DNA of 53,212 nucleotides. It comes from Clostridia bacterium (GTDB lineage: Bacteria; Bacillota; Clostridia; Oscillospirales; CAG-272). Positions 3,899 through 40,867 of the stretch are shown piece after piece. The first letter of the stretch is position 1, and every line of letters begins with the position of its first letter. The position numbers and the translations under genes were made by a program. Location of the stretch: the NCBI GenBank assembly GCA_017612655.1, contig JAGAFM010000086.1:1-53212 (forward strand). The letters are read 5' to 3'. The notes under the pieces were generated by a model. The model did no database searches and was not told the origin of the DNA. It was given only the letters and a program-made list of their open reading frames with translations.

Positions 3899-3903
3899 AG
3901 CAA

Positions 3904-4797: not shown

Positions 4798-4832
4798 TTT
4801 TCTTTCTCCTCCAGGAATCTCGGATGGAAGGA

Positions 4833-5969
4833 TCAGTTCTGATCCTCCGGCAATCCGTCAAACAAACGCATCTGCCGGTCCGTTCCTCCGTATTTCACCT
4901 CTGTGCGGTAGGGAAGGTTCAGATGCTCGTAGGCAAGCCTTGTGGCAACCCTGCCGCGGGGAGTTCTGTTCAAGAAACCGATCTGCATCAGATAGGGTTC
5001 GTAGACATCCTCCAGGGTGATTGATTCTTCCCCGACGGTCGCGGCAAGCGTCTCGAGTCCGACAGGGCCGCCGTCATAGGCACGGATAATGGTCTCCAGC
5101 ATCCTCCGGTCAACATTGTCCAGACCAAGTTCATCCACTTCGAGGGCCCCAAGCGCGTATCTTGCGATTTCCCGCGTCACAACGCCGTCTCCCTTGATCT
5201 GGGCAAAATCCCTGACGCGTTTGAGGAAGCGGTTTGCAATTCGCGGGGTTCCTCTTGAGCGGGAGGCAATTTCTCTTGCTCCGTCCTCATCGATCTCCAC
5301 GCCCAGAATCCGGGCGGAACGAAGGACGATCGTGGTCAATTCCTCCGTCGTATACAGTTCCAGCTTAAAGAGAACCCCAAACCGATCCCTCAGCGGAGTG
5401 GTCAGCTGACCTGCCCTGGTTGTTGCGCCGATCAGAGTAAACTTGGCAAGAGGCAGCCTGATGGAACGGGCTGCGGGACCCTTCCCGATAATGATATCCA
5501 GAGAATAGTCTTCCATGGCGGGATACAGAATCTCCTCAACCGGCCGGGGGAGACGGTGAATTTCGTCGATGAAAAGGACATCGTTTTCCGAAAGATTGGT
5601 AAGGAGAGCGGCAAGATCTCCCTGTTTTTCAATCGCCGGTCCCGAGGTCACGCGGATATTCACGCCCAGTTCGTTTGCGATAATCCCGGAAAGAGTGGTC
5701 TTTCCGAGCCCGGGCGGTCCGTAAAGCAGGACATGATCCAGCGGTTCGCCCCGTTTCCGGGCTGCGTCAATATAGATACTCAGGTTCTCTTTAATCTTCT
5801 CCTGCCCGATATAATCCGCGAGGTGTCTGGGACGAAGTCCGATCTCGAGTTCGGAGTCCTCTTCCTTCTTTTCTTCGTCGACAAGACGGTCTTCCCAGGC
5901 CGCGTAATCTCCGCCCTCGGCGGGAATCCCATCGAGACTGTCAACGGACGGATCAAAAAGATTCTTCAA
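4833..5969 (-). CDS. ruvB: Holliday junction branch migration DNA helicase RuvB
   Basis: Walker [10 protein letters not shown], Walker B FIDEIHRL and a RuvB C-terminal winged-helix region. Acidic ~45-aa N-terminal extension. Confidence 0.95.
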
Positions 5970-8539: not shown

Positions 8540-9613
8540 GTGGAAACAGCCAGTTTTGACGTCGCGGTCATCGGCAGCGGTCCGTCCGGCGCGACTTTTG
8601 TGAGAGAACTTGCACGCTCCGCTCCCTCACGGAAAATACTTTTGATCGGCCGCTTCTCAAAAGAAAAAATGTGCGGGGGCCTGCTGGCGCCGGATGCACA
8701 GAAGGCGCTCGCGCGTTTCAATCTGACTCTTCCGAAAAACGTACTGTCCGATCCGCAGATCTTTGCCGTCGAAACCGTGGACCTTTCCCTGAAAACCACC
8801 CGCCTGTATCAGCGTCATTATCTGAACATGAAACGAAAAGCGTTCGATGACTGGCTGGTTTCCATGATCCCGGAATCCGTCACTCTGATTGATGCGGACT
8901 GTACCGCGATTGTCCGGGAAGAAGGAGGGTTCCGCATCCAGACGAATGCAGGAACGTTTTTCTCCGCTTATCTGATCGGTGCAGACGGGGCAAATTCCAT
9001 CGTTCGCAGTACGTTTTTTCCGAAATTGTCAAAGCAGTACGTCTCGATTCAGCAGTGGTTTGATCCGATCGGGCGGTCTTTCCCCGCCTACGCCTGCATT
9101 TTCGATCCGTCTACCAGCGACAGCTGCTCCTGGATCATTCAGAAAGAAGATGGTCTCATATTCGGAGGCGCCTTTCCGAAAAGGGACTGCAGAAAACGGT
9201 ACGAAACGCAGAAACGGAATCTTGAGACGAAACTTCACTGTTCTCTGGGGACTCCCAGGCGAACCGAAGCCTGTCTGCTTTCCAGCCCGCGGAAACCGAC
9301 CGATTTCCGTCTTGCCAAAGGCTCCGTCTTCCTGATCGGAGAAGCGGCGGGACTGATCAGTTCCAGCTCTTTTGAAGGAATCAGCAGTGCCATGCTGAGC
9401 GGAAAGCATCTGGCTGACGCCTTTTCCTGTGGAAAGAATGACCGAATCATTCGGCGAAAATACCGTATTTCGGTAGCGCCTCTGATTCTTAAACTGTATT
9501 TAAAAATCGGAAAGCGGTTTGTTCTCTGCTCCCCTCTCCTGCGGAAACTGATTCTGCTGACCGGTTTGAAAAGCATCAGGCGTTACCCGGGTCCGGGCTC
9601 TTCCGGCATCTGA
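8540..9613 (+). CDS. FAD-dependent oxidoreductase (geranylgeranyl-reductase / flavin monooxygenase-like family)
   Basis: ORF 8366..9613 trimmed to GTG 8540 (GGAAGGAG SD 7 nt upstream). Dinucleotide fold FDVAVIGSGPSGATF, plus LIGADGANSIVRS and FLIGEAAGLISSSSFEGIS blocks. Confidence 0.8.
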   Translation: METASFDVAVIGSGPSGATFVRELARSAPSRKILLIGRFSKEKMCGGLLAPDAQKALARFNLTLPKNVLSDPQIFAVETVDLSLKTTRLYQRHYLNMKRKAFDDWLVSMIPESVTLIDADCTAIVREEGGFRIQTNAGTFFSAYLIGADGANSIVRSTFFPKLSKQYVSIQQWFDPIGRSFPAYACIFDPSTSDSCSWIIQKEDGLIFGGAFPKRDCRKRYETQKRNLETKLHCSLGTPRRTEACLLSSPRKPTDFRLAKGSVFLIGEAAGLISSSSFEGISSAMLSGKHLADAFSCGKNDRIIRRKYRISVAPLILKLYLKIGKRFVLCSPLLRKLILLTGLKSIRRYPGPGSSGI

Positions 9614-9725
9614 ACGTTTCCGGAACGTTCTCCCTTCTCCGCCTCCACAGCCCTTTTTATCACTTTTGCGAGAAAAGAATCCGCTTTCTGCCGTTAGATT
9701 TGTCACGAAAAAAAAAGAAAAGCTC

Positions 9726-9754
9726 TTGATTCTCCCTTCCTTCTCTGATATAAT
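9726..9754 (+). promoter_or_regulatory. sigma-70-type promoter (TTGATT-17-TATAAT) for ptsH
   Basis: TTGATT at 9726-9731, a 17-nt spacer and TATAAT at 9749-9754, in an AT-rich patch. Implies a ~215-nt leader before ptsH. Confidence 0.5.
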
Positions 9755-9976
9755 ATCCGTAGGTGTAGTGTTTGATTTGGCCGGCTTCTTTTCATTCCCT
9801 GCAGATCCGTCCTTTTCCCGTCCTGTTGATGTACCCGGGGCGGACAGCAAAAAACAATGCACCGCAGTTCGAGAACCTCCCTGGTACGCTCTCTCGGTTT
9901 TCGTCTGCACATCCCTTGAGCAGAGCGTAACTATCTTGAAAGGACAGGATATAGCCCGACTATATCAGGAAGAACC

Positions 9977-10240
9977 ATGATTTCACGCGACATCACCATT
10001 CAGAACAGTGTGGGTTTGCATGCACGTCCTGCCACGTTCTTCATTCAGAAGGCAAACTCTTACAGAAGCACCATTTGGGTGGAACTGGAAGACAGGCGTG
10101 TGAATGCGAAATCCCTGCTCGGTGTTCTTTCGTTGGGCATCACATCCGGAACAACGATAACGCTGATCGCAGACGGAGTCGATGAAGTAGAAGCATTGAA
10201 CGGAATTGAGGAACTTGTTACAAGCGGTTTTTCTGACTGA
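9977..10240 (+). CDS. ptsH: phosphocarrier protein HPr
   Basis: 87 aa. His-15 site VGLHARPA and the Ser-46 regulatory site NAKSLLGVLSLG. Confidence 0.93.
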   Translation: MISRDITIQNSVGLHARPATFFIQKANSYRSTIWVELEDRRVNAKSLLGVLSLGITSGTTITLIADGVDEVEALNGIEELVTSGFSD

Positions 10241-10343
10241 TCGCCGCTTCGCAAACGAACCATTTCGTTTGACGGTAAAGATGATAGAAGCGAGCCTTTG
10301 CAAAACAGGAATTCCGTTTTGAAGGCCCGTTTTTGTTTTAGAA

Positions 10344-12221
10344 ATGGAAAATGTAAATTCTGACTCTGTCAGGCACCGCGAGGAGCTCCTGTCCAAACTA
10401 CGGGAGAAGGCAAATCTACTTCCTCCGACACCGGGGGTCTATCTGATGCAGAACAGCCGGGGCGTCATCATTTACGTCGGAAAATCAAAGGTTCTGAAGC
10501 ATCGGGTGTCCCAGTATTTTCAGTCTCATTCGGAGCTTTCTCCGAAAACGGCGAAGATGGTTTCCAGCGTGTCGGATTTTTCTTATATTCTCTGCGACTC
10601 GGAGATGGAAGCCCTTACACTGGAAAACAGTCTCATCAAGCTTCATTCCCCGAAGTACAACATTCGTCTGAAGGATGACAAAAACTATCCGTACATCCGC
10701 GTTTCCGTCAATGATCCCTACCCTACTGTTACGATGGTTCGCAAACGCGCGGGAGACGGAGCAAAGTACTTCGGTCCGTACTCTTCCGGTCAGGCGGTGA
10801 GCCGCATTCTGGCAACCATCCGGAAGACTTTCTCCCTTCCCTCCTGCAGCCGTCAGTTCCCGAGAGATATCGGGAAAGGACGCCCCTGCGTCTACGCGCA
10901 ACTCGGTCAGTGCTGCGCGCCCTGTTCCGGTCAGATTTCCAGTGAGGAATACCGGGAGCGGTTTCGGGACATCTGCGCAATGCTGAGGGGGGACTACATA
11001 GAGGCCGAGGAAGAACTGACCCGGAAAATGCAGGAAGCCTCGGATTCCCTTTCCTTTGAAGCAGCGGCCGTGTACCGCGATCGGATCCAGAGCCTCTCAT
11101 TTCTGCGGCAAAAGCAGAAAGTGGTTGCGGATCCGGATACGGACCAGGATATTATCGGCATCTATCGAAGCGAAATGTGCACGGTCCTTTCCGTGCTTTA
11201 TGTCCGTTCCGGTGCGCTGATCGATTCCGAGAATCTCGAATTCGGCGCCGATCAGATTGCGGAAGACGAAGACCTGACCTCGTTTTTGTCCGCCTTTTAC
11301 GGAAAACGCGAGTCCGTTCCGCGTGAGATTCTGATCGGGTTTCCTTTTCGGGTGGAAGAGAGCGTCTCCCTTTCCGCCTTCCTCTCCTCTCTGTCAAACA
11401 GAAAAACAATCGTCCGTGTTCCTCAGCGCGGCGATTCCAGGAAGCTCTGCGAAATGGCAAACGAAAATGCCGCGCAGCACGGGAGACAGCTGCAGCAGAC
11501 GGCGGAAAAAAATCTGGGAACCGCCGTCACTCTTGCGGAGCTTCTTGCACTGGACAGCGTTCCCGAGCGGATCGAAGCGTACGATATTTCAAATCTCGGT
11601 TCCGAACACATCACGGCGGGGATGATCGTCTGGGATTCCGGAAGATTCTGCAAAAAGGACTACCGTCTCTTCTCGATTCGCGGCGCCGGGGATTCACCCG
11701 ACGACTACGGATCCATGCGCGAGGCCCTTCGCCGCAGACTTGAGCGTCTGATGGCAAATGAGCCGGGCTTTGAACAGCCGCCGGATCTGATCCTGCTGGA
11801 CGGCGGAAAGGCGCATGTTCACGCGGCGGAAGCCGTGATGGAGGAGTTGGGGCTCTCTCTCCCCGTTTTCGGAATGGTGAAAGACGCATACCACAAAACG
11901 CGTGCGCTGACCGACTCGGACCGGGAAATCAGCATAGCCTCTCAGCAGTCCGTTTACAACTTTATTTTCAGGATTCAGGAGGAGGTCCACCGGTTCACTC
12001 TTTCGCGCATGATGAATGCGAAGCGGAAAACCGTCCGCACATCCTCGCTGGAGAAAATCAAGGGAATCGGTCCCGCAAAGGCGCGTCTCCTGCTGGAAAC
12101 GTTCGGCTCCATGGATTCCCTTGCGGGCGCATCGGAAGAGCAGCTTCTTTCCGTCAAGGGAATTCAAAAGGAACTCGCACAGGCAATTATGGATTACTTC
12201 AAGGAGAAATCAACCAGATGA
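10344..12221 (+). CDS. uvrC: excinuclease ABC subunit C
   Basis: GIY-YIG domain (GVYLMQNSRGVIIYVGKSKVLKHRV), a Cys cluster CVYAQLGQCCAPC and a C-terminal (HhH)2 (IKGIGPAKARLLLETFGS). Confidence 0.95.
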   Translation: MENVNSDSVRHREELLSKLREKANLLPPTPGVYLMQNSRGVIIYVGKSKVLKHRVSQYFQSHSELSPKTAKMVSSVSDFSYILCDSEMEALTLENSLIKLHSPKYNIRLKDDKNYPYIRVSVNDPYPTVTMVRKRAGDGAKYFGPYSSGQAVSRILATIRKTFSLPSCSRQFPRDIGKGRPCVYAQLGQCCAPCSGQISSEEYRERFRDICAMLRGDYIEAEEELTRKMQEASDSLSFEAAAVYRDRIQSLSFLRQKQKVVADPDTDQDIIGIYRSEMCTVLSVLYVRSGALIDSENLEFGADQIAEDEDLTSFLSAFYGKRESVPREILIGFPFRVEESVSLSAFLSSLSNRKTIVRVPQRGDSRKLCEMANENAAQHGRQLQQTAEKNLGTAVTLAELLALDSVPERIEAYDISNLGSEHITAGMIVWDSGRFCKKDYRLFSIRGAGDSPDDYGSMREALRRRLERLMANEPGFEQPPDLILLDGGKAHVHAAEAVMEELGLSLPVFGMVKDAYHKTRALTDSDREISIASQQSVYNFIFRIQEEVHRFTLSRMMNAKRKTVRTSSLEKIKGIGPAKARLLLETFGSMDSLAGASEEQLLSVKGIQKELAQAIMDYFKEKSTR

Positions 12222-12799
12222 GAATCATAACCGGGAAGGCACGCGGCACGAAACTCCTTTCTCCGGAAGGGGACTCCACAAGACCGACTCCGGAGAGGGT
12301 CAAAGAAGCGATCTTCAGTTCGATTCAATTTCAGCTGGAGGGGACCCGTTTTCTCGATCTGTTTGCCGGTTCCGGACAAATGGGACTGGAAGCCGTCAGC
12401 CGCGGCGCTTCTCTGGCTGTGCTCGTTGACTCTTCCGCGGAAGCGGTAAGCCTGATCAAGGAAAACGCGAAAAAGACCCGTCTCTTCGAATTCTGCCGTA
12501 TCGTCCATTACCAGTATCCGGACTATCTTCGCGGATTCCGCCGCTCCGGTGAATCCGCTTTTGACTACATCTATCTGGATCCGCCGTTCCGTTCGAATCT
12601 GTATGCGGATGTCCTGGAAAGGATCTCGGAATCCGGAGCCGCCGATCCCCATACTCTCGTCATCGTGGAGAGCGAAGCGTCCGATTTGTCTGAACTCGTT
12701 CCGCAGGACTCTCTGAAGCGATATGGAATCGTTAAGACATCCAAATACGGCAGAATCAGCATTACCTGGCTGATGTTGAGAAAGGAGGAAGTCCTGTGA
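12218..12799 (+). CDS. rsmD: 16S rRNA (guanine966-N2)-methyltransferase RsmD
   Basis: MRIITGKARG start, DLFAGSGQMGLEAVSRGA and YLDPPF motifs. ATGA overlap with the uvrC stop. Confidence 0.9.
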   Translation: MRIITGKARGTKLLSPEGDSTRPTPERVKEAIFSSIQFQLEGTRFLDLFAGSGQMGLEAVSRGASLAVLVDSSAEAVSLIKENAKKTRLFEFCRIVHYQYPDYLRGFRRSGESAFDYIYLDPPFRSNLYADVLERISESGAADPHTLVIVESEASDLSELVPQDSLKRYGIVKTSKYGRISITWLMLRKEEVL

Positions 12800-13284
12800 C
12801 GGACTCATACCGTCCCTGCGTCATTCCCGGCAGTTTTGACCCGGTCACAACGGGCCATCTTGACCTGATCCGCCGCTGCACGGTTCTGTTTCCGGCAGTC
12901 TATGTCACCGTTTTTCGCAATTCCGCCAAAGACGGCTTGTTTTCCTACGAGGACCGGCTCGCCATGCTGAAACTCGCCACTTCCGATCTCCCCTCGGTCA
13001 AATGCTCCTTTGAAGACGGCCTTCTGGCCGAGTTTGCCGGGAAACTGGGCGCCGTAATTGTGAAAGGTATCCGTTCCGCCGCTGACGCAGAGATGGAAAC
13101 CTATCTTTCCCTGACGACGCGCGCGATTTCCCCGGAAACGGAAACGCTGTTCCTTCCTGCCCGGCAGGAATATCTTCACCTCAGTTCCTCCTACGTAAGA
13201 GAATTGATTCGTTATGGAGGTTCCCTCCGCGGAGCGGTCCCTCCTGAAGTTGAAACCTTTATCAAAACAAGAAAAGAGGGATGA
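12796..13284 (+). CDS. coaD: phosphopantetheine adenylyltransferase
   Basis: IPGSFDPVTTGHLDLI (HxGH nucleotidyltransferase motif) and SSSYVRELIRYGG. 4-nt overlap with rsmD. Confidence 0.93.
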   Translation: MTDSYRPCVIPGSFDPVTTGHLDLIRRCTVLFPAVYVTVFRNSAKDGLFSYEDRLAMLKLATSDLPSVKCSFEDGLLAEFAGKLGAVIVKGIRSAADAEMETYLSLTTRAISPETETLFLPARQEYLHLSSSYVRELIRYGGSLRGAVPPEVETFIKTRKEG

Positions 13285-30470: not shown

Positions 30471-30496
30471 CGACATTATTCTTTTTTCCGGGGAAC

Positions 30497-30525
30497 AGTA
30501 TAGCACGGCGGGTTCAATCTGTCAA
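30497..30525 (-). promoter_or_regulatory. promoter of the riboswitch-ECF operon (TTGACA-17-TATACT)
   Basis: The minus strand has TTGACA (30525-30520), a 17-nt spacer GATTGAACCCGCCGTGC, and TATACT (30502-30497). Confidence 0.55.
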
Positions 30526-30630
30526 GTCCGAGTTTTGATCTTCTGAAGAATGCCTTTCCGGGACTCGCATCCCTGATGCGGTCCGAACGGAAGCGCCCGG
30601 GGAAAGTTCTTCCCGATTTTCGAAAATCCC

Positions 30631-30659
30631 TTGCTTTTTTCCCTGTCATTTGATAGAAT
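30631..30659 (+). promoter_or_regulatory. promoter of the DUF4838 operon (TTGCTT-17-TAGAAT, extended -10 TG)
   Basis: TTGCTT at 30631-30636, a 17-nt spacer ending in TGA, and TAGAAT at 30654-30659. Divergent from the ECF promoter about 105 nt away. Confidence 0.5.
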
Positions 30660-30823
30660 GTTTGCTGTCCGAAAAGCGGTTGCGAAATTCCATGCAGCCG
30701 TATTTTCAACTGAACAACGACGGGGCATTCGCCGCCGGGAAGATCTGCTTTTCGCACGGAAAGAAGGCGAGATCGGATCACGGAAAACCCTTTGGACGGA
30801 TTGGCTCCGGGAGGAGGTCTGGA

Positions 30824-32614
30824 ATGAGAGCAGTAACAATCGGCGGACACGATCTTTCCGCGTTTCGGATTGTCCTTCCGAAAGAACCGAAAGGCGCGGA
30901 AAAAACCGGTGCAGCCTTTCTGCAGAAAGCCCTGCTTCAGTCCAGCGGGCTTGTCCTCCCCGTCGTCTCCGAGCCGGGGGAGCATAACATCTTCATCGGT
31001 GGAGAGAGACATTCCGAACGAATCCGCTGGGACGGATTCTGCATACTGACGGACGATCGCAATCTGTATCTGTTCGGCAACGAGGAAAGGGGCACGCTCT
31101 ATGCCTGCTACGAATTTGCCGAATCCAGACTCGGATACCGTTATTTCGCTGTCGGAGTCACCCGCATCTCCCGCGAGGGAGAGGTTCAGGTTCCGTCCGG
31201 ACTGGACGAAATCCACAATCCAGGATTCGAGGTTCGCCGGGTATCCTGGGCGGATCTCGCCTATGATCCGGAATTCGCCTCCCATGCGCGCGTCAATTCC
31301 CATCTGGAAGCTGACATGGAGGCATACGGGGGGACGGTCTACGACTTCATCCCCTGCCATACTTTCTACCAGTATTGTCCCGCGGACGAGTATTTCCGGG
31401 AGCATCCCGAGTACTACTCCGAGCGGGGCGGAAAACGAATCCCGTGCCGGGACGCCGGAGGACCCGGTCAGCTCTGTCTGACCAATCCGGATGTCCTCCG
31501 AATCGTCACAAACCGGATTCTGGAAGAGCTCAGGGAACATCCCGAGCGGAAACTGATCGACTTTTCGCAATGCGACTGCGGCAATTACTGTCAGTGCGAA
31601 AAGTGCGCGGCAGTAGATGCGGAAGAGGAGAGTCCCGCCGGAAGCATCGTCCGGTTCGTCAATGCGGTGGCGGAATCGGTGGAGCGCGAGTTCCCGGATG
31701 TTCTCGTTCAGACTTTTGCCTACGAATATTCCGTGAAGCCGCCGAAGTTCACGAAAGCCAGGAAGAACGTCCTGATCCGCTACTGCACCTACGACGCCTG
31801 TTTCCGGCACGCGCTGGACGACACGGACTGCGAGATCAATTCCGCAACCGTTCGGCCGGAAATGCTCGGCTGGAAGGAGCGCTGCAGTCAGCTCTCCCTG
31901 TGGGACTATCTGTCCAACTACAACTGCTATCTGGCGCCGTTTCCGAATCTTTACTCTCTCTGGAAAAACGCTTCGTTCTACGCGGAATGCGGGGTCCGTC
32001 ATCTGTACGAATCGATGGACACTACCCATTCCACGACCGGGCCTTACGGGGATCTGAAGACCTATCTGGCCGCAAAACTCTGCTGGAACCCAACCGTCAG
32101 CAAAGATGATTACCTGATCTGGATCGATGAATTCCTGGAGGCCTTCTACGGACCGGGATGGGAAGACATTCGCTCGTATCTGAAGCTGGAGCTTGAGACC
32201 ACGGAAGGACGCTGCTTTACCTGCAAGGAGCCGATCGACATCTGCTTCCTGTATTACAAAACCATTCCGGAGGTACCCAATCTGAAGCGCTTCCTTCGGA
32301 GGAGCTACACCGCCAAGCCGTATCAGCCGGTATATCCCAACCACGCGCTGTCCCGCCTTTGCGAGCGTCTGGACGAGGCAAAGGGCTGTTTTGACCGGGC
32401 CTATGAAAAGGCGGAAACCGATTTGCAGCGATACCGGATCAAACGGAGCAGGATCGCTCTGACCTATCTGGACCTGTTCTGCACCGAACACGACGAAACT
32501 GCCATGACCCCGACGGAGCGAAACGCCTACGAAGCGGAAGTGGAACAGTTCTACCGGGACAAGAAAGCTTACAACTACTACTACAACATTCACACCGAAT
32601 TCATGAGAAACTGA
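30824..32614 (+). CDS. DUF4838-type putative glycoside hydrolase, paralog 1 (no signal peptide)
   Basis: ORF 30650..32614 trimmed to ATG 30824 (GGAGGAGG SD). Blocks RGTLYACYEFAESRLGYRYF, GPGQLCLTNPDVLRIVT, CDCGNYCQCEKCAAVDAEEESPAGSIVRFVNAV, KARKNVLIRYCTYDACFRH, WDYLSNYNCYLAPFPNL and IDEFLEAFYGPGW. Confidence 0.85.
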   Translation: MRAVTIGGHDLSAFRIVLPKEPKGAEKTGAAFLQKALLQSSGLVLPVVSEPGEHNIFIGGERHSERIRWDGFCILTDDRNLYLFGNEERGTLYACYEFAESRLGYRYFAVGVTRISREGEVQVPSGLDEIHNPGFEVRRVSWADLAYDPEFASHARVNSHLEADMEAYGGTVYDFIPCHTFYQYCPADEYFREHPEYYSERGGKRIPCRDAGGPGQLCLTNPDVLRIVTNRILEELREHPERKLIDFSQCDCGNYCQCEKCAAVDAEEESPAGSIVRFVNAVAESVEREFPDVLVQTFAYEYSVKPPKFTKARKNVLIRYCTYDACFRHALDDTDCEINSATVRPEMLGWKERCSQLSLWDYLSNYNCYLAPFPNLYSLWKNASFYAECGVRHLYESMDTTHSTTGPYGDLKTYLAAKLCWNPTVSKDDYLIWIDEFLEAFYGPGWEDIRSYLKLELETTEGRCFTCKEPIDICFLYYKTIPEVPNLKRFLRRSYTAKPYQPVYPNHALSRLCERLDEAKGCFDRAYEKAETDLQRYRIKRSRIALTYLDLFCTEHDETAMTPTERNAYEAEVEQFYRDKKAYNYYYNIHTEFMRN

Positions 32615-32626
32615 GGTGCCCGAATC

Positions 32627-34429
32627 GTGAGAACACTGTCGATCTGCGGAATCCCGGTCCGGTTCTTCACCCTCGTGATCCCGTCCTTCCCCGATCCGGC
32701 CGTTCAGACCGCGGCGCGTTTTCTTCAGGATTCGATCCGCAGATCCTGCGGGATCGAACTCCCCGTCCGAAACGAAACCGCCGAGCATGGAATCTACCTA
32801 AACTCGAGCGGTCCCTGCGATCAGATCAGATGGGACGGATTCCGGATTCGCACCGACGGCGGAAACCTCTATCTGGACGGGAATCTTCCGCGCGGAACGC
32901 TGTACGCTTCCTTCGATTTTGCCGAGAGGTTTCTCGGCTACCGCCACTTTGCGCATGAAACCGAAGTAATCCGGACGGACGGCGAGGCGGACGTTCCGCC
33001 GTTTTTCGACCGGATCGACAACCCATCTTTTCAGGAACGCCGCTCCAACTGGTACTGGTTCGAAAAAGACCCTGCCCTTCACGCGCACTGCAGAATCAAC
33101 ACCGATCCGAAGTTCGGCTGGGAGAAAACCCCGGCCGAGTGGGGCGGATCTCTGGCTGCGCCTTCCTCGTGCCATGAACTCTGGCGCTTCTGCCCGGGCA
33201 GCCTGTACTTTGAAACGCATCCAGAGTACTTCTCTTTGGTGGACGGTGAGCGGATCCCCTGCAACGACAACTACGGTCCCGGCCAGCTGTGCCTGTCCAA
33301 TCCGGACGTAATCCGGATCGTTACGGAGAATGTACTGAAGGAGCTGAGGAATCACCCGGATCTTCCGCTGGTCGAACTGTCCCAGTCAGACAACGGGAAC
33401 TATTGCCGGTGTCCCTCCTGCGCGGCGATCGACCGGGAAGAGGAAAGCCATTCCGGCACGCTGATCCGGTTTCTGAACGCGGTCGGGGAGTCGGTGGAAC
33501 GGGAATTCCCCTCCGTTCTGCTCCGCACGTTTGCCTACGGATATTCCACAAAGCCTCCCAGACATACAAAAGCCAGAAGGAACATCCTGATCCGGTTCTG
33601 CACGTTTGAAGCCTGCTTCCGGCACGGGATCTCGGACCCGTCCTGTCCGACGAACCGGGAAAGAACGTTTCCGGAAATCACCGCCTGGGGAGAAGCCTGT
33701 TCCCAGATGTCAATCTGGGACTACGCAGCGAACTGGAACTGCTACATCGCTCCCTTCCCGAATCTGATTTCTCTGAGAGAAAACGCCCGTCTCTATCAAT
33801 CCTGTCATGCAACATCCGTTTTCGTGGAAGACTGCAGCGGCAGGTATCAGGGAGGAATGCACCCCGATCTGAAGGCCTATCTGATCGGGAAGCTCCTCTG
33901 GAACGCCTCCATGAGCGAAGAAGAGTACCGTACGCACATTGACGAGTTCCTGGAGGCCTTCTACGGTCCCGGCTGGAAATCCATCCGGCGGGTCATCGAA
34001 ATCGAGCATGAAACGACCGCCGAACGGTGCTTCAGCTGCTCCGAAAACCTGGATTACTGCTTCGTTCCTTTCGAAACCGACCCTCCCGTTCCGGGGCTCG
34101 TCGAATTCCGCAGACGAAACTACAGGGTTTTTCCTTTTCAGCCATTTCTCCCCGACCACGCCCTGACCGAGTTCGTCCGTCACATGGACGAACTGACGCG
34201 GCTGTTCGGAGAAGCGATGGAACAGGCGGAAACGGATCAGCAGAGGGATCATATCCAGAGAAGCCGGTTTTCCCTTTCCTACGCGGAACTGTTCGGGAGC
34301 GGACATGTCAAGCGCGAAATGACAAAAGAGCAGCGGAAGGAACACATTCTCGCGGTCGAGCAGTTCTGCCGGGATAAGGACGCCTACGGAATGGCTTACA
34401 ACATTCAAACCGAAGTCAACGGCCATTGA
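32627..34429 (+). CDS. DUF4838-type putative glycoside hydrolase, paralog 2
   Basis: GTG start 8 nt after a GAGGTG SD, 12 nt after paralog 1. Same conserved blocks (RGTLYASFDFAERFLGYRHF, GPGQLCLSNPDVIRIVT, NYCRCPSCAAIDREEESHSGTLIRFLNAV, WDYAANWNCYIAPFPNL). Confidence 0.88.
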   Translation: MRTLSICGIPVRFFTLVIPSFPDPAVQTAARFLQDSIRRSCGIELPVRNETAEHGIYLNSSGPCDQIRWDGFRIRTDGGNLYLDGNLPRGTLYASFDFAERFLGYRHFAHETEVIRTDGEADVPPFFDRIDNPSFQERRSNWYWFEKDPALHAHCRINTDPKFGWEKTPAEWGGSLAAPSSCHELWRFCPGSLYFETHPEYFSLVDGERIPCNDNYGPGQLCLSNPDVIRIVTENVLKELRNHPDLPLVELSQSDNGNYCRCPSCAAIDREEESHSGTLIRFLNAVGESVEREFPSVLLRTFAYGYSTKPPRHTKARRNILIRFCTFEACFRHGISDPSCPTNRERTFPEITAWGEACSQMSIWDYAANWNCYIAPFPNLISLRENARLYQSCHATSVFVEDCSGRYQGGMHPDLKAYLIGKLLWNASMSEEEYRTHIDEFLEAFYGPGWKSIRRVIEIEHETTAERCFSCSENLDYCFVPFETDPPVPGLVEFRRRNYRVFPFQPFLPDHALTEFVRHMDELTRLFGEAMEQAETDQQRDHIQRSRFSLSYAELFGSGHVKREMTKEQRKEHILAVEQFCRDKDAYGMAYNIQTEVNGH

Positions 34430-34451
34430 GAAGGAAAAGGGAGACACAACC

Positions 34452-36263
34452 ATGAGAAAGCTGACAATCTGCGGAGTCCCCCTGGAATCCTTCTCGGTCG
34501 TTCTGCCCCCTAACCCGCCGGCCGCCGTACAAACCGCCGCGGACTTTCTCCTGTCCTCTTTTGAAAAAAGCTGCGGGGTCAGACTTCCCGTTACGGAAAC
34601 CGCGGAGGAACACGGCATTTTTGTGGGAACAGGCGTCCCCTGCGATGCCGTTAAATGGGACGGATTCCGGGTCCGCACAGACGAACGCAGCCTCTTCCTG
34701 GACGGCAATCATCCGAGAGGCACTCTCTACGCCGCCTACGATTTTGCGGAGCGTTTTCTCGGATACCGGATGTTCGCTCCGGATACCGAAGTGATCGCAT
34801 CCGACGGAACGGCGGACGTCCCCCCGGGCTACGACCGGGTCGACAACCCGTCTTTCCGCGAACGGATCAGCGACTGGGCTGCCTATCAGAAGGATGAGGC
34901 TTTTGCCTCCCACAGCCGACTGGTAACTCTCTCCGGAAAGTTTGCGGAAGCTTACGGAGGGACCGACGCTCCGTCCTGGGGATGCCACACTCTTGCTTCC
35001 CTGTGTCCCGCGGAACTGTATTATCAGGACCACCCGGAGTATTATGCGCTCCGGGACGGGGAGCGGATCCCCTGCAGGGACGGCTCCGGACCCGGGCAGC
35101 TGTGTCTCACCAATCCCGACGTACTCAGAATCGTTACGAACAATGTCATAAAGATTCTGAGAGCAGATCCGAGCCGGGAACTGGTCGAGGTCTCACAGGC
35201 AGACAATCAGTCTTTCTGCCAATGCGAAGCCTGCGCTGCAATCGACCGCGAGGAGGAGAGCCACTCCGGAACCCTGATCCGCTTTGTCAACGCGATTGCG
35301 GAAGCCGTCGAGCCGGAATTTCCGAAAACGGTGATCCGAACGTTTGCCTATCAGTACACGAGCAAGCCCCCGAAACACACAAAAGCCAGGAAAAACGTTC
35401 TGATCCGGTACTGCACCATTCACGCGTGCTTCCGCCACGCGATCGACGACCCGGACTGCGGCACTAACCGGGAGCAGGTATTCGGGGAAATGAAGCAGTG
35501 GGGCTCCATGTGCGACCAGATGTCCGTCTGGGACTATGTGATAAACTGGTGGTGTTACCCCGCACCCTACCCGAACCTGATTTCTCTCCGGGAGAACGCC
35601 CGGGTATTCGACGAATGCAAAGCGGTGAGCGTCTTTGAAGAAGACGCCTCGGACGTCAATCAGGGCGGGATGCATCCGGAGCTGAAAGCCTACCTGATCG
35701 GCAAGGTTCTCTGGAATGCCCACATGAGTCAGGAAGAGTACGACCGCCACATCGACGAGTTTCTCGCCGCCTATTACGGCGACGGATGGAAATCGATCCG
35801 CAGAATCATCGAACTGGAGCATGCCTCAACCGCATGCAGGTGCTTCAGAGATCTTGAGCCGATCGATTTCAATTACATCACCTACAAAGTCGAACCGGAA
35901 ATCCCCTGGATCCGGGGCAACTGGCGCCGAAACTACCGGCCCCTTCCCTATCAGCCGGCCGTTCCAGGGCACCCCCTGGCAGAATTCCTGAGTCATTCCG
36001 AGGAGATCCGTTCCCTGTTTCGGGTGGCGACGGACGCGGCGAAAACGGAACTCCAGCGGGAGCATATCCGCAGGAGCAAGCTGTCCTTCGACTACGTGGA
36101 TCTGTTCTGCAGCCCCCACGACCGGTCCTCCATGACGGAAGAAGAGGCCGCTGCCTACGAAGAAGCCGCCGACACGTTTCTCTGCGATTTTGACAGATAC
36201 GGAATGGCGTACAATCTGGATGTCTGGTGGGAAAGAAAAGGGAGAGAAGAGGATCTGTCCTGA
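34452..36263 (+). CDS. DUF4838-type putative glycoside hydrolase, paralog 3
   Basis: ATG after an AAGGGAGA SD. MRKLTICGVPL N-terminus nearly identical to paralog 4. Blocks RGTLYAAYDFAERFLGYRMF, GPGQLCLTNPDVLRIVT, SFCQCEACAAIDREEESHSGTLIRFVNAI and WDYVINWWCYPAPYPNL. Confidence 0.88.
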   Translation: MRKLTICGVPLESFSVVLPPNPPAAVQTAADFLLSSFEKSCGVRLPVTETAEEHGIFVGTGVPCDAVKWDGFRVRTDERSLFLDGNHPRGTLYAAYDFAERFLGYRMFAPDTEVIASDGTADVPPGYDRVDNPSFRERISDWAAYQKDEAFASHSRLVTLSGKFAEAYGGTDAPSWGCHTLASLCPAELYYQDHPEYYALRDGERIPCRDGSGPGQLCLTNPDVLRIVTNNVIKILRADPSRELVEVSQADNQSFCQCEACAAIDREEESHSGTLIRFVNAIAEAVEPEFPKTVIRTFAYQYTSKPPKHTKARKNVLIRYCTIHACFRHAIDDPDCGTNREQVFGEMKQWGSMCDQMSVWDYVINWWCYPAPYPNLISLRENARVFDECKAVSVFEEDASDVNQGGMHPELKAYLIGKVLWNAHMSQEEYDRHIDEFLAAYYGDGWKSIRRIIELEHASTACRCFRDLEPIDFNYITYKVEPEIPWIRGNWRRNYRPLPYQPAVPGHPLAEFLSHSEEIRSLFRVATDAAKTELQREHIRRSKLSFDYVDLFCSPHDRSSMTEEEAAAYEEAADTFLCDFDRYGMAYNLDVWWERKGREEDLS

Positions 36264-36364
36264 CCGCCGCGGAAGGAACGCCCCGGGCTATACCGGGCCG
36301 GAACTCCTACCGCCTCACGTTTTCTTTTCCCGTCTCCTCTATCCGTATCGAATAGGAGGCCAAT

Positions 36365-38149
36365 ATGAGAAAACTGACAATCTGCGAAACCCCTCTCGAA
36401 CAGTTTACGCTGGTTCTTCCCCGTGAGGTTCCCCCCGCCGTCCGGACTGCTGCCGACTTCCTGCTGAAATCGTTCGAGGAAAGCTGCGGAGTCATACTTC
36501 CGGTTTCGGAATCCGCGCCGGAACACGGGATCTTTCTGGGAACAGGATCCCCCTGCGAAGCCGTAAGATGGGACGGATTCCGGATCCGTACGGATGACCG
36601 TCACCTCTACCTGGACGGAAATATCCCGAGGGGCACTCTCTACGCTGCCTACGATTTTGCGGAGCGTTATCTGGGATACCGGTCGTTTACGCCGGACACG
36701 GAAATCATTTCCTCGGAAGGAAGCGCAAGTCTCCCGTCCGGGACCGACCGCATCGACAATCCCTCCTTTCAGGAAAGGCTGAGCGACTGGTACGCATTCA
36801 GCGATCCGAAACTCGCATCCCGGTTCCGGCTGTTCAATCTTCATGAGATTCCCGAAGAATACGGCGGTTCCGGAGCGCCTTCGTGGTCCTGTCACAGCAT
36901 GGCGAGTCTTTGCCCGTCTGACCTCTATTATGAAGAACACCCCGAGTATTACGCTCTGGTGGACGGACAGCGAATTCCCTGCAGAGACGGCGGTGGGCCG
37001 GGCCAGCTTTGCCTGACCAATCCGGATGTCCTGCGCATTGTCACGGAAAACGTTCTCCGGCAGCTTCGGAAGAATCCTCATCAGCGTTGCGTCGAAGTCT
37101 CCCACTGCGACAACCAGAACTATTGCCGCTGCGAACGCTGTGCCGCCGTTGACGAGGAGGAAGGCAGTCACTCCGGAACCATGATCCGGTTCGTCAACGC
37201 GGTAGCAGAGGCCGTGGAACAAGAGTTCCCGGGGGTTCTCGTCCGAACCTTTGCCTATGAGTACACGATCAAGCCCCCTAAGATCACAAAGGCGAGGAAA
37301 AACGTCCTGATCCGCTACTGCACCTACGACACCTGTTTCCGGCACGGGATCGACGATCCGAACTGCAAAGTCAATCGGGAAACCACCTACCCGGAAATCC
37401 TGGGGTGGAAGGAAAAAAGCTCCCAGCTGTGCATCTGGGACTACGTCACAAACTGGGACTGCTTCCTGGCGCCGTTTCCGAATCTGGTCTCCCTGCGGGA
37501 AAACGCCCGGTTTTTCGCGGACAGCAACGTAACCAGCGTTTTCGAGGAAGACCAGTCTTCCATCCGGCAGGGCGGCATGCACCCGGAGCTGAAATCCTAT
37601 CTGATCGGAAAACTCCTGTGGAACGCCCGGATGAGCGAAGAGGAATACCGCCGTCACATCGACGAATTTCTGGAAGCCTACTACGGACCGGGATGGAAAT
37701 CGGTTCGGAGAGTGATTGAGATCGAGCACGAAACCACCGGGGGCCGCTGCTTCGGCTGCAAAGAGGAACTGGATATCTGCTTTGTTCATTACGTGACTTA
37801 TCCCCCGATTCCCGGAATCAAGCAGTTCCTTCGGCAGAACTACCGCGCCTGCGCGTTTCAGCCGATTCTTCCGAATCATGCCCTGACCGAGTTCTGCACC
37901 CGGATCGAAGAATGCCGCAGGCTTTTCGGGGAGGCCCGCGAGGCGGCCCAGACCGACCTTCAGAGGGAACATATCAGACGGAGCGAATTCTCCCTCGACT
38001 ATCCGGAGCTTTTCTGTACGCCGCACAACCGTTCCGAAATGAGCCAAGAAGAGCAGGACCGCTATCTGGAGGCGGTCCAGAAGTTTTACGAAGACAAAAA
38101 AGAATACGGAATGTATTTCAATCTGTCTTCGTCCTTTACAAAACAGTAG
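36365..38149 (+). CDS. DUF4838-type putative glycoside hydrolase, paralog 4
   Basis: ATG after an AGGAGG SD. Blocks RGTLYAAYDFAERYLGYRSF, GPGQLCLTNPDVLRIVT, NYCRCERCAAVDEEEGSHSGTMIRFVNAV and WDYVTNWDCFLAPFPNL. Confidence 0.88.
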   Translation: MRKLTICETPLEQFTLVLPREVPPAVRTAADFLLKSFEESCGVILPVSESAPEHGIFLGTGSPCEAVRWDGFRIRTDDRHLYLDGNIPRGTLYAAYDFAERYLGYRSFTPDTEIISSEGSASLPSGTDRIDNPSFQERLSDWYAFSDPKLASRFRLFNLHEIPEEYGGSGAPSWSCHSMASLCPSDLYYEEHPEYYALVDGQRIPCRDGGGPGQLCLTNPDVLRIVTENVLRQLRKNPHQRCVEVSHCDNQNYCRCERCAAVDEEEGSHSGTMIRFVNAVAEAVEQEFPGVLVRTFAYEYTIKPPKITKARKNVLIRYCTYDTCFRHGIDDPNCKVNRETTYPEILGWKEKSSQLCIWDYVTNWDCFLAPFPNLVSLRENARFFADSNVTSVFEEDQSSIRQGGMHPELKSYLIGKLLWNARMSEEEYRRHIDEFLEAYYGPGWKSVRRVIEIEHETTGGRCFGCKEELDICFVHYVTYPPIPGIKQFLRQNYRACAFQPILPNHALTEFCTRIEECRRLFGEAREAAQTDLQREHIRRSEFSLDYPELFCTPHNRSEMSQEEQDRYLEAVQKFYEDKKEYGMYFNLSSSFTKQ

Positions 38150-38230
38150 ATTTTCGTATTCCCTTTTCTTTCCGGGACACGGATCGAAAAACACATATCT
38201 CAGAGAATAATTGTGATCGGAGGATCGTCT

Positions 38231-40096
38231 ATGGCACATTTTCTTATTACCGCCAACTGCTGCGCCTGGAAATCCGCGGAGTGGACAGCCCGTACGGAAA
38301 CGCTTCTTTCGTACGGAGTCCGGAACCTGAATTGCTCCCTTGGAAAATCGGATCTCGGAAGCAGCGCCGCCGAAGAGCTCGCTTCTCTTCTTTCCGAGAA
38401 GCGGAAGCAGGGGAAGGCACTGTCCGCGGTTTCTATCTCCTACACCGATCCCGAACTCCCTTCCGAGGAACAGTTCGGACAGATCGCAGAGGCGGCAAAA
38501 CAGCTTGGGGCGGCAAAAATCCGGGTTTTCGTCCCGTTCGAAGGTCTCGGATCCGGATCGGCGGAAACCGCTTCCTGTCTGAGCAAACTTGCAGATATCG
38601 CTCGTGATAGCGAACTGACCCTCTGCCTGGATAATCAACCCGGGGGAGCTGCGGCATCTGCCGCTGAAATCAAAGCATTTCTCGATGGCATTCCGGATCT
38701 TCGTCTCATCTTTGACCCGGCCGCTTTCGCTTCCGGCGGGAATGATCCCCTCTCTTCCTACCTTGAACTGGAGGATCGGATCGACGGGCTTCTCCTTACG
38801 GAATCTGAAACGGAAACCAGAATTCCCGAAATGATTTCTCTCCTCGCCAAAACGGACGGGGTTCGACTGCTGATTCTTCCGAAAGGCTGTGCGAATCTTT
38901 CCGAGGCGGCGAAAACGGCAAAGCGGTGCGCGGAAGACGCGCAGCCGATCCGTCTCGGCATTATCGGACTAGGCAACATGGGAAGAGGCCACTCCGACAA
39001 CTTCCTTTCCGGCCATATCAAGGAGATGCGGATCACCGCGGTTGCGGATATCAATCCGGACAAACTGTCCTACGCCACCGAAAAACTCCCCTGGGCCAAG
39101 CAGTACGCAACGGCGAGCGAACTCATGGACAGCGGCGAGGTCGATGCGGTCATTGTCTGCACTCCGCACTACTTCCACCCCCCGCTTGTCATTGAGGCAC
39201 TTTCCAAGGGTCTGCACGTCATCTCCGAAAAACCGGCAGGCGTCTACACCAAACAGGTGCGGGAGATGAACGAGGCGGCTGCAAAATCCGACAAAGTCTT
39301 CGCCATGATGTTCAACCAGAGAACCAACCATGTCTACCGGAAAGTCAAGGAAATCGTGGATTCCAAAAAGTACGGCGAGATTCGGAGAGTCAACTGGATC
39401 ATCACGGAATGGTACCGTCCTCAGTTTTATTACAATTCCGGCGGATGGCGCGCCACCTGGGCGGGCGAAGGCGGAGGGGTTCTGCTAAACCAGTGCCCGC
39501 ATCAGCTCGATCTCTGGCAGTGGATTTGCGGCATGCCCTGCAAAATCCGGGCTTTCCTCCACGAGGGAAAATGGCATGACATCGAAGTGGAAGACGATGC
39601 GACGATCTATGCTGAATATCCGAACGGCGCAACCGGCGTATTCGTCACCTCGACCGGCGATTATCCCGGCTCCAACCGTCTGGAAATCACGCTGGACGGT
39701 GCGAGAATTCTCTGCGAGCACGATCAGATCCGTCTGACGGAACTGGACGAACCGCTCAGTTCCTTTACCGTAACCTGCAAATCCGTCTTCGGAAAAGTCG
39801 GATATCACGACGTTCCCGTGGAGACGGACGGCAAGAACGAACAGCATGTAGGAGTAATGAATGCGTTCTCCGCGCATATTCTGTACGGTGAGCCGCTGAT
39901 CGCTGCGGGTACCGAGGGGATCAATGGTCTGACCATTTCCAACGCGGCGCATCTTTCCAGCTGGACGAACCAGACCGTAACCCTTCCTCTGGATGAGGAT
40001 CTTTTCTACGAAGAGCTGAAAAAGCGAATAGCAACATCCCGGGCGAAGGGACAGGTGCAGGAAGTCGTCCAGGACGACATGAGCAGCACATATTGA
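38231..40096 (+). CDS. fusion protein: xylose-isomerase-like TIM-barrel (sugar phosphate isomerase/epimerase-like) domain + Gfo/Idh/MocA NAD(P)-dependent oxidoreductase
   Basis: ORF 38213..40096 trimmed to ATG 38231 (GGAGGA SD). The N-terminal ~235 aa carry LGAAKIRVF, LTLCLDNQPG and LRLIFDPAAF blocks typical of AP_endonuc_2 TIM barrels. From IRLGIIGLGNMGRGH onward it is a Rossmann fold with EKP (VISEKPAG) and a Gfo/Idh/MocA C-terminal domain. Confidence 0.8.
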   Translation: MAHFLITANCCAWKSAEWTARTETLLSYGVRNLNCSLGKSDLGSSAAEELASLLSEKRKQGKALSAVSISYTDPELPSEEQFGQIAEAAKQLGAAKIRVFVPFEGLGSGSAETASCLSKLADIARDSELTLCLDNQPGGAAASAAEIKAFLDGIPDLRLIFDPAAFASGGNDPLSSYLELEDRIDGLLLTESETETRIPEMISLLAKTDGVRLLILPKGCANLSEAAKTAKRCAEDAQPIRLGIIGLGNMGRGHSDNFLSGHIKEMRITAVADINPDKLSYATEKLPWAKQYATASELMDSGEVDAVIVCTPHYFHPPLVIEALSKGLHVISEKPAGVYTKQVREMNEAAAKSDKVFAMMFNQRTNHVYRKVKEIVDSKKYGEIRRVNWIITEWYRPQFYYNSGGWRATWAGEGGGVLLNQCPHQLDLWQWICGMPCKIRAFLHEGKWHDIEVEDDATIYAEYPNGATGVFVTSTGDYPGSNRLEITLDGARILCEHDQIRLTELDEPLSSFTVTCKSVFGKVGYHDVPVETDGKNEQHVGVMNAFSAHILYGEPLIAAGTEGINGLTISNAAHLSSWTNQTVTLPLDEDLFYEELKKRIATSRAKGQVQEVVQDDMSSTY

Positions 40097-40144: not shown

Positions 40145-40867
40145 ATGATTGCTGAGCAAACTGTCCGGGATATTCCCTTTCAAAAAAGCGGGGATGCTTT
40201 CCTTTCCAACCAGTCGATTCTGGAACTCATGACAAGAGTTGCCGGTTATCATGAATCTTTGGTTGAAAACCGGAGCAACGGTCCGGACCGGTGCGGTTCC
40301 GCCTGGGTCGTTCAGGCATGGAAACTGAAAGTGTTTTCCCGTCCTGTTTCCGGTACTCCCGTCACCGTCAGAACCTGGTCCCGAGCATTTACAAGAGTCC
40401 AGGGGTTTCGCGACTTCGAGCTTACGGATCCTGGAGGGGAACGGTTCGCTGCAGCCACCTCCGTCTGGGCTACAATCGACCGCTCCACCCGTTCCCTGCT
40501 CCGTCTGGACCCGTTGCGCATGGAATCCTACGGGTCCGAACCGGAACGGTTTTCCCTGCCCGGATTCCGTTTTTCCAGAATCCTTCCGGATGCCGCTCAG
40601 TCCCCCGGAGTCCTTCTGACCGTTGGCGACAATCTGATTGACGAAAACGCCCATGTTCACAACTCCGCCTATCCGGAACTGATTCTTCCGGCGTTTCCCG
40701 AGGGGATCAACCCGGAGTTCTTCCATGAGACTGAGATCCAGTACTTCAGAGAAATCCTCCCGGGACAGCAGATTCTGATCGAGCGAACCGAAAAAAGCGG
40801 TTCTCATTATGTCTGGATTCGAGATGCCGGGGGAACAGCCGTCCATGCAGTCATCATTCTGAACTGA
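40145..40867 (+). CDS. acyl-ACP thioesterase family (tandem hotdog) protein
   Basis: 240 aa. WVVQAWKLKVFSRPVSGTPVTVRTW...RDFELTDPGGERFAAATSVWATIDRSTRSLLRL matches the acyl-ACP thioesterase N-terminal hotdog pattern, with a second hotdog half C-terminally. Confidence 0.75.
   Translation: MIAEQTVRDIPFQKSGDAFLSNQSILELMTRVAGYHESLVENRSNGPDRCGSAWVVQAWKLKVFSRPVSGTPVTVRTWSRAFTRVQGFRDFELTDPGGERFAAATSVWATIDRSTRSLLRLDPLRMESYGSEPERFSLPGFRFSRILPDAAQSPGVLLTVGDNLIDENAHVHNSAYPELILPAFPEGINPEFFHETEIQYFREILPGQQILIERTEKSGSHYVWIRDAGGTAVHAVIILN

Follow-up and report, generated by a model that had tools for sequence, protein, structure and literature searches.

The 53,212-nt stretch analysed here (called the window throughout; contig JAGAFM010000086.1 of the Clostridia bacterium assembly GCA_017612655.1) carries at 38231..40096 on its + strand a two-domain open reading frame (ORF) of 621 aa, P0001, defined by stop-free translation, Pfam domains and a family alignment. 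Its N-terminal domain (aa 1–235; 38231..38935, + strand) is a degenerate xylose-isomerase-like (PF01261) TIM barrel of Iso1-type ancestry; its C-terminal domain (aa 236–621; 38936..40093, + strand) is a Gfo/Idh/MocA oxidoreductase of the P2B11-Oxido1 type, matched to PDB entry 8tdi. The Pfam matches PF01408, PF22725 and PF02894 (72.5, 92.3 and 46.2 bits, all above their cut-offs; E 6e-12 to 3e-26) fell within aa 240–585, and the PF01261 match (aa 46–191; profile positions 29–187 of 249) was marginal, scoring 31.7 bits where the cut-off is 31.1, and 33.4 bits in the genome-wide profile scan. An earlier sequence-only reading of this DNA had described one ORF of this length with these two domains, quoting the blocks LGAAKIRVF, LTLCLDNQPG, LRLIFDPAAF, IRLGIIGLGNMGRGH and VISEKPAG; all of the blocks are present and the description was borne out.

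Directly upstream on the + strand are four tandem genes for GH163/GH185-type glycosidases (30650..38149 in all; individually 30650–32614, 32627–34429, 34452–36263 and 36365–38149), each of which matched DUF4838 (PF16126, E 2e-73 to 4e-84), in agreement with the placement of the gene behind four DUF4838 genes in the sequence-only reading. The gap between the last of these and P0001 is 81 nt, without a predicted terminator and with a weak promoter-like site. An acyl-ACP-thioesterase-like gene (40145..40867, + strand) begins 48 nt downstream of P0001, and the base composition of P0001 is the same as that of its surroundings. Two antisense open frames of 770 and 827 aa (30476–32788 and 36155–38638, both on the − strand) overlap the DUF4838 genes and the beginning of the fusion gene on the other strand; frames of this sort are typical of GC-rich third positions and were not taken as genes.

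The start of P0001 is marked by a Shine-Dalgarno sequence read directly from the DNA, GGAGGA at 38219..38224 (+ strand), 6 nt 5′ of the ATG at 38231, and the alignment showed the N-terminal residues MAHF to be the conserved N-terminus of the homologous family. The source annotation called a 421-aa product from an internal methionine, M201 (38831–40096), and the annotation of a second contig, L132 (NCBI contig JAFPQH010000115.1; an independent assembly, 97.1% identical to the window over 6.7 kb), did likewise (3663–4928). That both gene callers gave the shorter product alone is what might be expected if the long ORF were an assembly or frameshift artefact joining two genes, but this explanation is effectively refuted: L132 has the same uninterrupted 621-aa frame, in the order DUF4838, DUF4838, fusion, thioesterase; 30 of 82 species-representative homolog loci with reconstructed ORFs hold the same fusion, the rest being stand-alone Gfo genes; family homology is colinear across the junction; and no Shine-Dalgarno sequence comparable to that before M1 precedes the ATG at 38831. 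The artefact check proposed with the sequence-only reading thus came out in favour of a genuine fusion. Codon-position GC (positions 1, 2 and 3) was 0.62, 0.49 and 0.57 in the N-domain and 0.58, 0.40 and 0.69 in the C-domain, and the N-domain difference of GC3 minus GC2 ranked in the lowest 3.5% of 996 equal-length windows from long ORFs of the genome; this flattened codon periodicity is probably the reason both annotations skipped the domain.

We compared the C-domain with solved and annotated dehydrogenases. It has the Rossmann glycine-rich, NAD-binding motif GIIGLGNMG (aa 243–251; 38957..38983, + strand; in the PF01408 match), the EKP motif (as SEKP, aa 332–335) and the C-terminal alpha/beta domain by which Gfo/Idh/MocA proteins are recognized. 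The closest solved relative by a wide margin was PDB 8tdi, with 45% identity over aa 239–602 (E 1.5e-100 to 7e-100) and a Foldseek TM score of 0.83–0.86 (normalised to target). The P2B11 fosmid, which originates from a Gram-positive bacterium of the gut, carries the genes for Iso1, Oxido1, Oxido2 and Iso2; TIM-barrel “isomerases” act as 3-keto-glycoside 1,2-lyases, and the Oxido1 pocket consists of N147, W179, R181, Y185, N205 and H209 (bioRxiv 10.1101/2024.03.25.586180). All six pocket residues are kept in P0001, aligned by HMMER to 8tdi, as N362, W394, R396, Y400, N420 and H424 (39314..39502, + strand). The C-domain further retains 138 of 141 family columns conserved at ≥95% and is 60–75% identical to 29 fused homologs. 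P0001 did not reach the NCBIfam equivalog cut-offs for IolG (108.8 vs 355) or levoglucosan dehydrogenase (59.7 vs 650), nor the 3-dehydrogenase cut-offs of BT_2158_fam (47.4 vs 750) and BT_2159_fam (42.1 vs 650). By full-length similarity and by its active-site set the C-domain is a predicted 3-dehydrogenase of the P2B11-Oxido1 (glucuronide) type. The sequence-only reading had linked the gene to oxidative, non-hydrolytic glycoside cleavage, and the 45% identity to Oxido1, the partner of two TIM “isomerases”, upholds that link.

The N-domain has fared very differently from the C-domain. Its identity to the same 29 fused homologs was 23–30%, as compared to 42–80% (mean 58%) for the N-domains of other homolog pairs at equal C-domain identity; the ratio of N-domain to C-domain identity was 0.38 for P0001, and averaged 0.90 with a minimum of 0.65 for all other pairs. 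It retains 21 of 77 family columns conserved at ≥95%, 56 being lost. When N-domains of intact homologs were searched against the window by tblastn, one colinear frame-1 match was obtained (24–27% identity, E 1e-14 to 1e-27); compensated frameshifts within the N-domain were considered and rejected, there being no significant tblastn match in other frames. Five in-frame deletions of 1, 5, 4, 11 and 28 aa (49 aa in total) have removed the segments GKI(N)I, EYMHIKD (containing the conserved His) and EPHLKVFDGL... (containing the Glu conserved in LEPH); the N-terminal D-E-S of the family is C-C-A-W in P0001, and MELRG is gone.

These losses coincide with the residues expected to bind metal. The fused family has the consensus E...D...H...E with spacings of 29, 26 and 40 residues, each position conserved in ≥90% of its members, which we take to be the metal-binding/catalytic tetrad of PF01261 epimerases/isomerases. 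In the alignments D134-N135-Q136 (38630..38638, + strand) replaces family E-N-E at the first metal-ligand/catalytic Glu position; D162, within FDPAAF (aa 161–166; 38711..38728, + strand), is the sole metal-site position kept, and family N165 is Ala; the 11 family residues EYMHIKD... are absent at the junction I184/D185 (38780..38785, + strand), and with them the conserved His; and at the junction L216/P217 (38876..38881, + strand) the Glu of LEPH is replaced by Pro and the following 28 residues (EPHLKVFDGL...) are gone. The Glu-Asp-His-Glu tetrad is therefore incomplete in P0001, three of its four positions being substituted or deleted and the Asp unchanged. The sequence-only reading had taken LDNQ as a sign that the TIM domain might be divergent or non-catalytic; the change of ENE to DNQ, together with the wider loss of the tetrad and loops, strengthens that suggestion. 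The same losses undercut its description of P0001 as a covalent fusion of two activities, since the lyase-type domain is without most of the residues conserved in its family.

Structure prediction, which the sequence-only reading had named as a check on the TIM fold, gave a barrel-like model: AlphaFold2 models (full length with 92 homologs; N-domain with 37) had eight predicted beta/alpha units at pLDDT ~82, from an alignment dominated by intact homologs. Foldseek searches with the N-domain model matched the xylose-isomerase-like barrels AsbF, Art22, UlaE, D-allulose 3-epimerase and AtHYD (TMq 0.63–0.75; 0.68–0.75 for the first four).

We then examined the family to which P0001 belongs. A homolog search over 5.8 billion proteins gave 8000 scored matches, of which the best full-length homologs were proteins of 669–676 aa with PF01261 and Gfo domains from Clostridia metagenome-assembled genomes (MAGs), 48–56% identical overall. 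When GTDB species representatives were scanned, 579 related stretches were confirmed, mostly from Acutalibacteraceae, Oscillospiraceae or Ruminococcaceae, sampled from human and ruminant guts. In a maximum-likelihood tree of C-domains P0001 fell inside a 19-member clade (support 100/99) in which all 18 other members are fused; P0001 being nested among fused proteins, its ancestor was an intact fusion. Its C-domain terminal branch is about 2x the length of those of its nearest relatives.

The usual gene order round the fused MAHF clade (found in L001, L002, L038–L044, L048, L051 and L052) is fusion, Oxido2-like Gfo, Iso2-like UxuA/PF01261 protein, short-chain dehydrogenase/reductase (SDR), PfkB (KdgK-like) and KDPG-type aldolase (Eda), sometimes with a leucine-rich repeat protein after the SDR. 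Judged from gene content, this operon corresponds to the set of P2B11 modules, Iso1 and Oxido1 having become one polypeptide, and is predicted to be attached to the keto-deoxy-gluconate (KDG; uronate) route. Order-level relatives (L127, L129) are unfused, an Iso1-like gene of its own standing immediately upstream of an Oxido1-like gene, and the fusion plausibly arose from such a gene pair. In L116 (JAEDIH010000076.1, 859–4050) the order is Oxido1-like Gfo, separate Iso1-like TIM (63% identical to the L002 N-domain) and Oxido2-like Gfo; this permuted order shows that the modules shuffle as well as fuse. Genomes of the same genus as the window had unfused homologs only, at 50–53% identity, and a thioesterase query for the orthologous locus in 10 same-genus genomes gave no match at E 1e-20, the sequences being too divergent.

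Gene calls proved a poor guide to fusion in this family. Three predicted proteins (P0052, P0058 and P0088; 392–411 aa, 69–74% identity) were apparently stand-alone Gfo enzymes, as if the TIM domain had been lost in close relatives, and the calls for P0035 and P0071 were N-terminally truncated with their motifs intact. P0052 (393 aa) was rejected as a stand-alone Gfo, for it sits in an intact 686-aa fused ORF (L001, 9122–11182). Public calls repeatedly begin at a methionine inside the gene and omit the TIM half, even an intact one, which makes counts of stand-alone versus fused proteins unreliable. A literature search on fused TIM-Gfo enzymes returned nothing relevant, and no experimentally characterised member of the fused clade was found.

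Variation at the locus was assessed from three haplotypes: the window, L132 and L131, an ENA contig 99% identical over 1.3 kb. L131 was located through its 105-aa product, which matched the first 76 residues at 93% identity when 1.84 billion representatives were searched exhaustively; the same search otherwise gave just 19 weak matches to the degenerate N-domain, and with so few matches among so many representatives the degenerate domain appears confined to the species-level lineage of the window. An exact 35-mer search for further haplotypes in JGI metagenomes gave no match. In L131 a 34-nt stretch lying between imperfect short repeats (38451..38484, + strand) is deleted, causing a frameshift and a stop at codon 105, which suggests that at least one haplotype can do without the N-domain. 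Across all three haplotypes the N-domain had 6 nonsynonymous and 8 synonymous variants and the C-domain had 0 and 15, a significant difference (Fisher p = 0.007); the nonsynonymous share in the N-domain was below the 75% expected without constraint (binomial p = 0.011), and its ratio of nonsynonymous to synonymous substitution rates (dN/dS) against L132 was 0.28 (Nei-Gojobori). Purifying selection on the N-domain was weak but real, and far below that on the dehydrogenase, the counts being small. Together the strong Shine-Dalgarno sequence, the MAHF start and the variant pattern indicate that the N-domain is still translated and mildly constrained.

Two further features of this comparison concern recombination. 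In the dehydrogenase domain the window and L132 show 15 synonymous differences, of which 13 lie within 127 nt (39487–39613), and the clustering suggests a short recombination tract. The fourth DUF4838 gene (36365–38149, compared with L132 1194–2981) is markedly divergent (dS 0.31; 102 synonymous and 42 nonsynonymous differences; a 3-nt indel), and its flanking genes are ~99% identical between the two contigs, a pattern that resembles the trace of recombination or gene conversion between paralogs.

The pattern of a divergence burst (25% N-domain identity as against ~58% expected) followed by present constraint (dN/dS ~0.28, p = 0.011) could mean that the N-domain was remodelled for a new function, such as regulation or the binding of another ligand or a partner (a DUF4838 protein, for instance). 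The predicted retention of the barrel core and the new genomic context common to the three haplotypes are in keeping with this. We regard it as rather unlikely, in that no particular function has positive evidence, the L131 allele suggests dispensability, codon periodicity is flattened, and a single species-level lineage shows the form. At the other extreme, the whole gene could be a functionless relic on its way to loss, following displacement or horizontal acquisition without partners. The decayed N-domain with its frameshift allele, the long terminal branch of the C-domain, the unfused state of the same-genus homologs, and the failure to find Oxi2, Iso2 and Eda in the recovered genome all fit; but the recovered genome is incomplete, the C-domain varies at synonymous sites alone and holds nearly all of its conserved columns and every active-site residue, and a strong Shine-Dalgarno sequence is retained, and we judge the relic explanation very improbable.

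We examined if the link to DUF4838 was a property of the family. The source genome is a MAG of 1.46 Mb, 59% complete and 55% GC. Even at E ≤ 1e-3, DUF4838 queries gave no match less than 10 kb from the homolog at any of the 82 loci, nor at that threshold in stretches of 11.7–20 kb round the homologs of 12 genomes of the same genus, family or order; the same DUF4838 queries matched 15 contigs of the window's own genome. Adjacency of P0001 and DUF4838 is thus limited to one species-level lineage, being found in 0 of 94 homolog loci elsewhere. The sequence-only reading had suggested a step coupled to the DUF4838 proteins and had made co-occurrence among homologs a check on it; in the sample examined there was none, an outcome that went against the suggestion. 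A general connection of the fusion with DUF4838 is unsupported; the fused clade normally lies in the uronate/KDG operon. The genome has 25 PF16126 matches (on contigs C2, C13, C28, C40, C46, C47, C68, C72, C130, C131, C135, C144 and C153–C157), an unusually large GH163/GH185-type expansion, and DUF4838 neighbours would accordingly be comparatively easy to acquire there.

Partners for the dehydrogenase were also sought. Oxido2 and Iso2 genes are not present adjacent to P0001; searches of the recovered 59% of the genome revealed neither orthologues of Oxido2, Iso2/UxuA and Eda nor a second, canonical copy of the fusion. Eight other PF01261 genes are present. On contig C91 (~9600–12940) a Gfo gene, a PF01261 TIM barrel and a second Gfo gene form a cluster with 25–28% identity to the fused clade. 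On contig C68 (124–4300) a stand-alone PF01261 match (3580–4218, − strand) lies ~2.6 kb from a DUF4838 match (358–960), and it is possible that this TIM barrel serves as a trans-acting partner.

These data bear on the proposal, in line with the sequence-only reading, that P0001 is bifunctional and active in both halves, the Gfo domain forming a 3-keto product that the TIM domain then eliminates or hydrates in a step coupled to the DUF4838 enzymes. The architecture of lyase plus dehydrogenase speaks for it, as intact relatives very probably work so; the gene is on the same strand as the last DUF4838 gene, across a short gap with no predicted terminator; the gene arrangement is kept in three haplotypes; and the N-domain is under some purifying selection. 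Set against the altered metal site and the 56 lost columns, the deleted catalytic-face loops, the existence of a frameshift allele, and the 94 other loci that fail to tie the family to DUF4838, we consider this proposal quite improbable for P0001 itself.

We think it probable that P0001 is a derived member of a fused family, with an intact 3-dehydrogenase, a dead lyase domain and a new DUF4838 context. The family, widespread in Clostridia known from gut and rumen MAGs, is one in which an Iso1-type TIM barrel (the 3-keto-glycoside lyase/hydratase module of the known pathway) is fused to an Oxido1-type glycoside 3-dehydrogenase, its intact members heading an operon predicted to carry out C3 oxidation, beta-elimination and hydration of glucuronides, joined to the keto-deoxy-gluconate route. 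In the lineage of the window the gene appears to have left the uronate operon and now stands between a DUF4838 array and a thioesterase-like gene; it may have been acquired from a fused-clade lineage, or it may be the last remnant of a lost operon. Judging from the residues retained, the C-domain most likely still uses NAD to oxidise a sugar or glycoside at its C3-OH, and the substrate probably has an anionic C6 group, given the specificity of P2B11 and the uronate context of the clade. The TIM half is most likely dead as a lyase, and would perform no metal-dependent elimination or hydration, because the metal-binding/catalytic residues and the loops of the active-site face are lost; it probably folds as a trimmed barrel, kept under weaker selection, probably as a non-catalytic structural, scaffold or solubility domain. 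With a dead TIM half, elimination could be spontaneous, could be performed in trans by a stand-alone TIM-barrel protein of the genome, or might not be needed if free sugars released by the DUF4838 hydrolases are what is oxidised.

Several observations weigh against this account of a dead lyase on a relocated dehydrogenase. The L131 deletion is known from a single short metagenome contig, and the dN/dS of ~0.25–0.3 comes from 14 variant sites only and is equally what an N-domain with a new function might show. Metal binding by the surviving D134 and D162 is possible in principle, and our assignment of the tetrad draws on what is generally known of PF01261 enzymes and on conservation within the family. 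The homologs behind the AlphaFold2 barrel are intact ones, and it is these that drive the predicted fold. Partner genes may sit on contigs missing from a genome that is 59% complete; and co-transcription of P0001 with the DUF4838 genes is plausible, but the gap between them holds a weak promoter-like site.

The TIM barrel could instead be a selected pseudoenzyme that scaffolds or regulates an active 3-dehydrogenase recruited to a cytoplasmic GH163/GH185-type array, an idea we hold to be unlikely. If true, Koshland hydrolysis and 3-keto oxidative chemistry would be combined on anionic (sulfated or uronic) fragments of host or plant glycans; to our knowledge, no operon pairing the two has been described. 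The domains, the chemistry and the fusion architecture are of known kinds, and the fused clade seems not to have been characterised. Three features set this locus apart: a gutted lyase attached to a conserved dehydrogenase, the move of the gene to a DUF4838 array, and a frameshift allele that segregates in the population. The locus thereby offers a natural experiment on whether a cell gains from the dehydrogenase by itself, and on what the enzyme does beside DUF4838 glycosidases. The first description of glycoside cleavage by the 3-keto route dates from as recently as 2024, and how varied the route is among Gram-positive gut bacteria has scarcely been charted. The Iso1-Oxido1 fusion, being very frequent in uronate/KDG operons of Acutalibacteraceae and Oscillospiraceae, provides a handle for annotating the pathway. 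The TIM half is often overlooked by gene callers, both at the window locus and in intact homologs.

Among known systems, the pairing of Gfo/Idh/MocA and TIM-barrel proteins is shared by P0001 with DgpA and DgpB/C and with LgdA and LgdB, but DgpA (7xr9) is far from P0001 (E 9e-14), and P0001 belongs to neither the DgpA nor the LgdA family. The AL/BT pathway of Alistipes and Bacteroides (AL3/BT3 dehydrogenase, AL1/BT1 TIM-barrel 3-keto-beta-glucoside 1,2-lyase and DUF1080 lyase/hydratase) follows a like course, in which C3 oxidation by a Gfo/Idh/MocA enzyme precedes metal-dependent elimination/hydration by a xylose-isomerase-like TIM barrel; it is distant in sequence and periplasmic, whereas P0001 is cytoplasmic and has no DUF1080 partner at its locus. 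We know of no reported link between GH163/GH185 enzymes and 3-keto chemistry. DUF4838 is the catalytic domain of these families, which are distant relatives of GH20 hexosaminidases, and GH163 (BT1035) and GH185 (Sp_0475) are Koshland-type, substrate-assisted, hexosaminidase-like hydrolases (PMC10570127).

The closest comparison is with P2B11 and with the intact fusions. The P2B11 set cleaves alpha- and beta-glucuronides and, more slowly, 6-phospho and 6-sulfo glucosides and sulfoquinovosides, by C3 oxidation to a 3-keto intermediate followed by elimination and hydration, with Oxido1 the component most important for activity (bioRxiv 10.1101/2024.03.25.586180). The C-domain of P0001 resembles Oxido1 along its whole length, in fold and in all six active-site residues, and the fused clade has the same modules (TIM barrel, two Gfo enzymes and a second TIM barrel); the differences are that Iso1 and Oxido1 are separate in P2B11 and a single polypeptide in P0001 and the fused clade, that the Iso1 part of P0001 is without the conserved site, and that the neighbours of P0001 are DUF4838 glycosidases rather than Oxido2 and Iso2. 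The intact fusions of ~670 aa (L002, GCA_965348915.1; L001, GCA_024404115.1), which in Acutalibacteraceae and Oscillospiraceae are annotated merely as “TIM barrel protein”, share with P0001 the MAHF start, the domain order and 70–75% C-domain identity; they differ from it in retaining DES, ENE, FDPAN, HIKD and LEPH, in an N-domain longer by 49 aa, and in their place within uronate/KDG operons.

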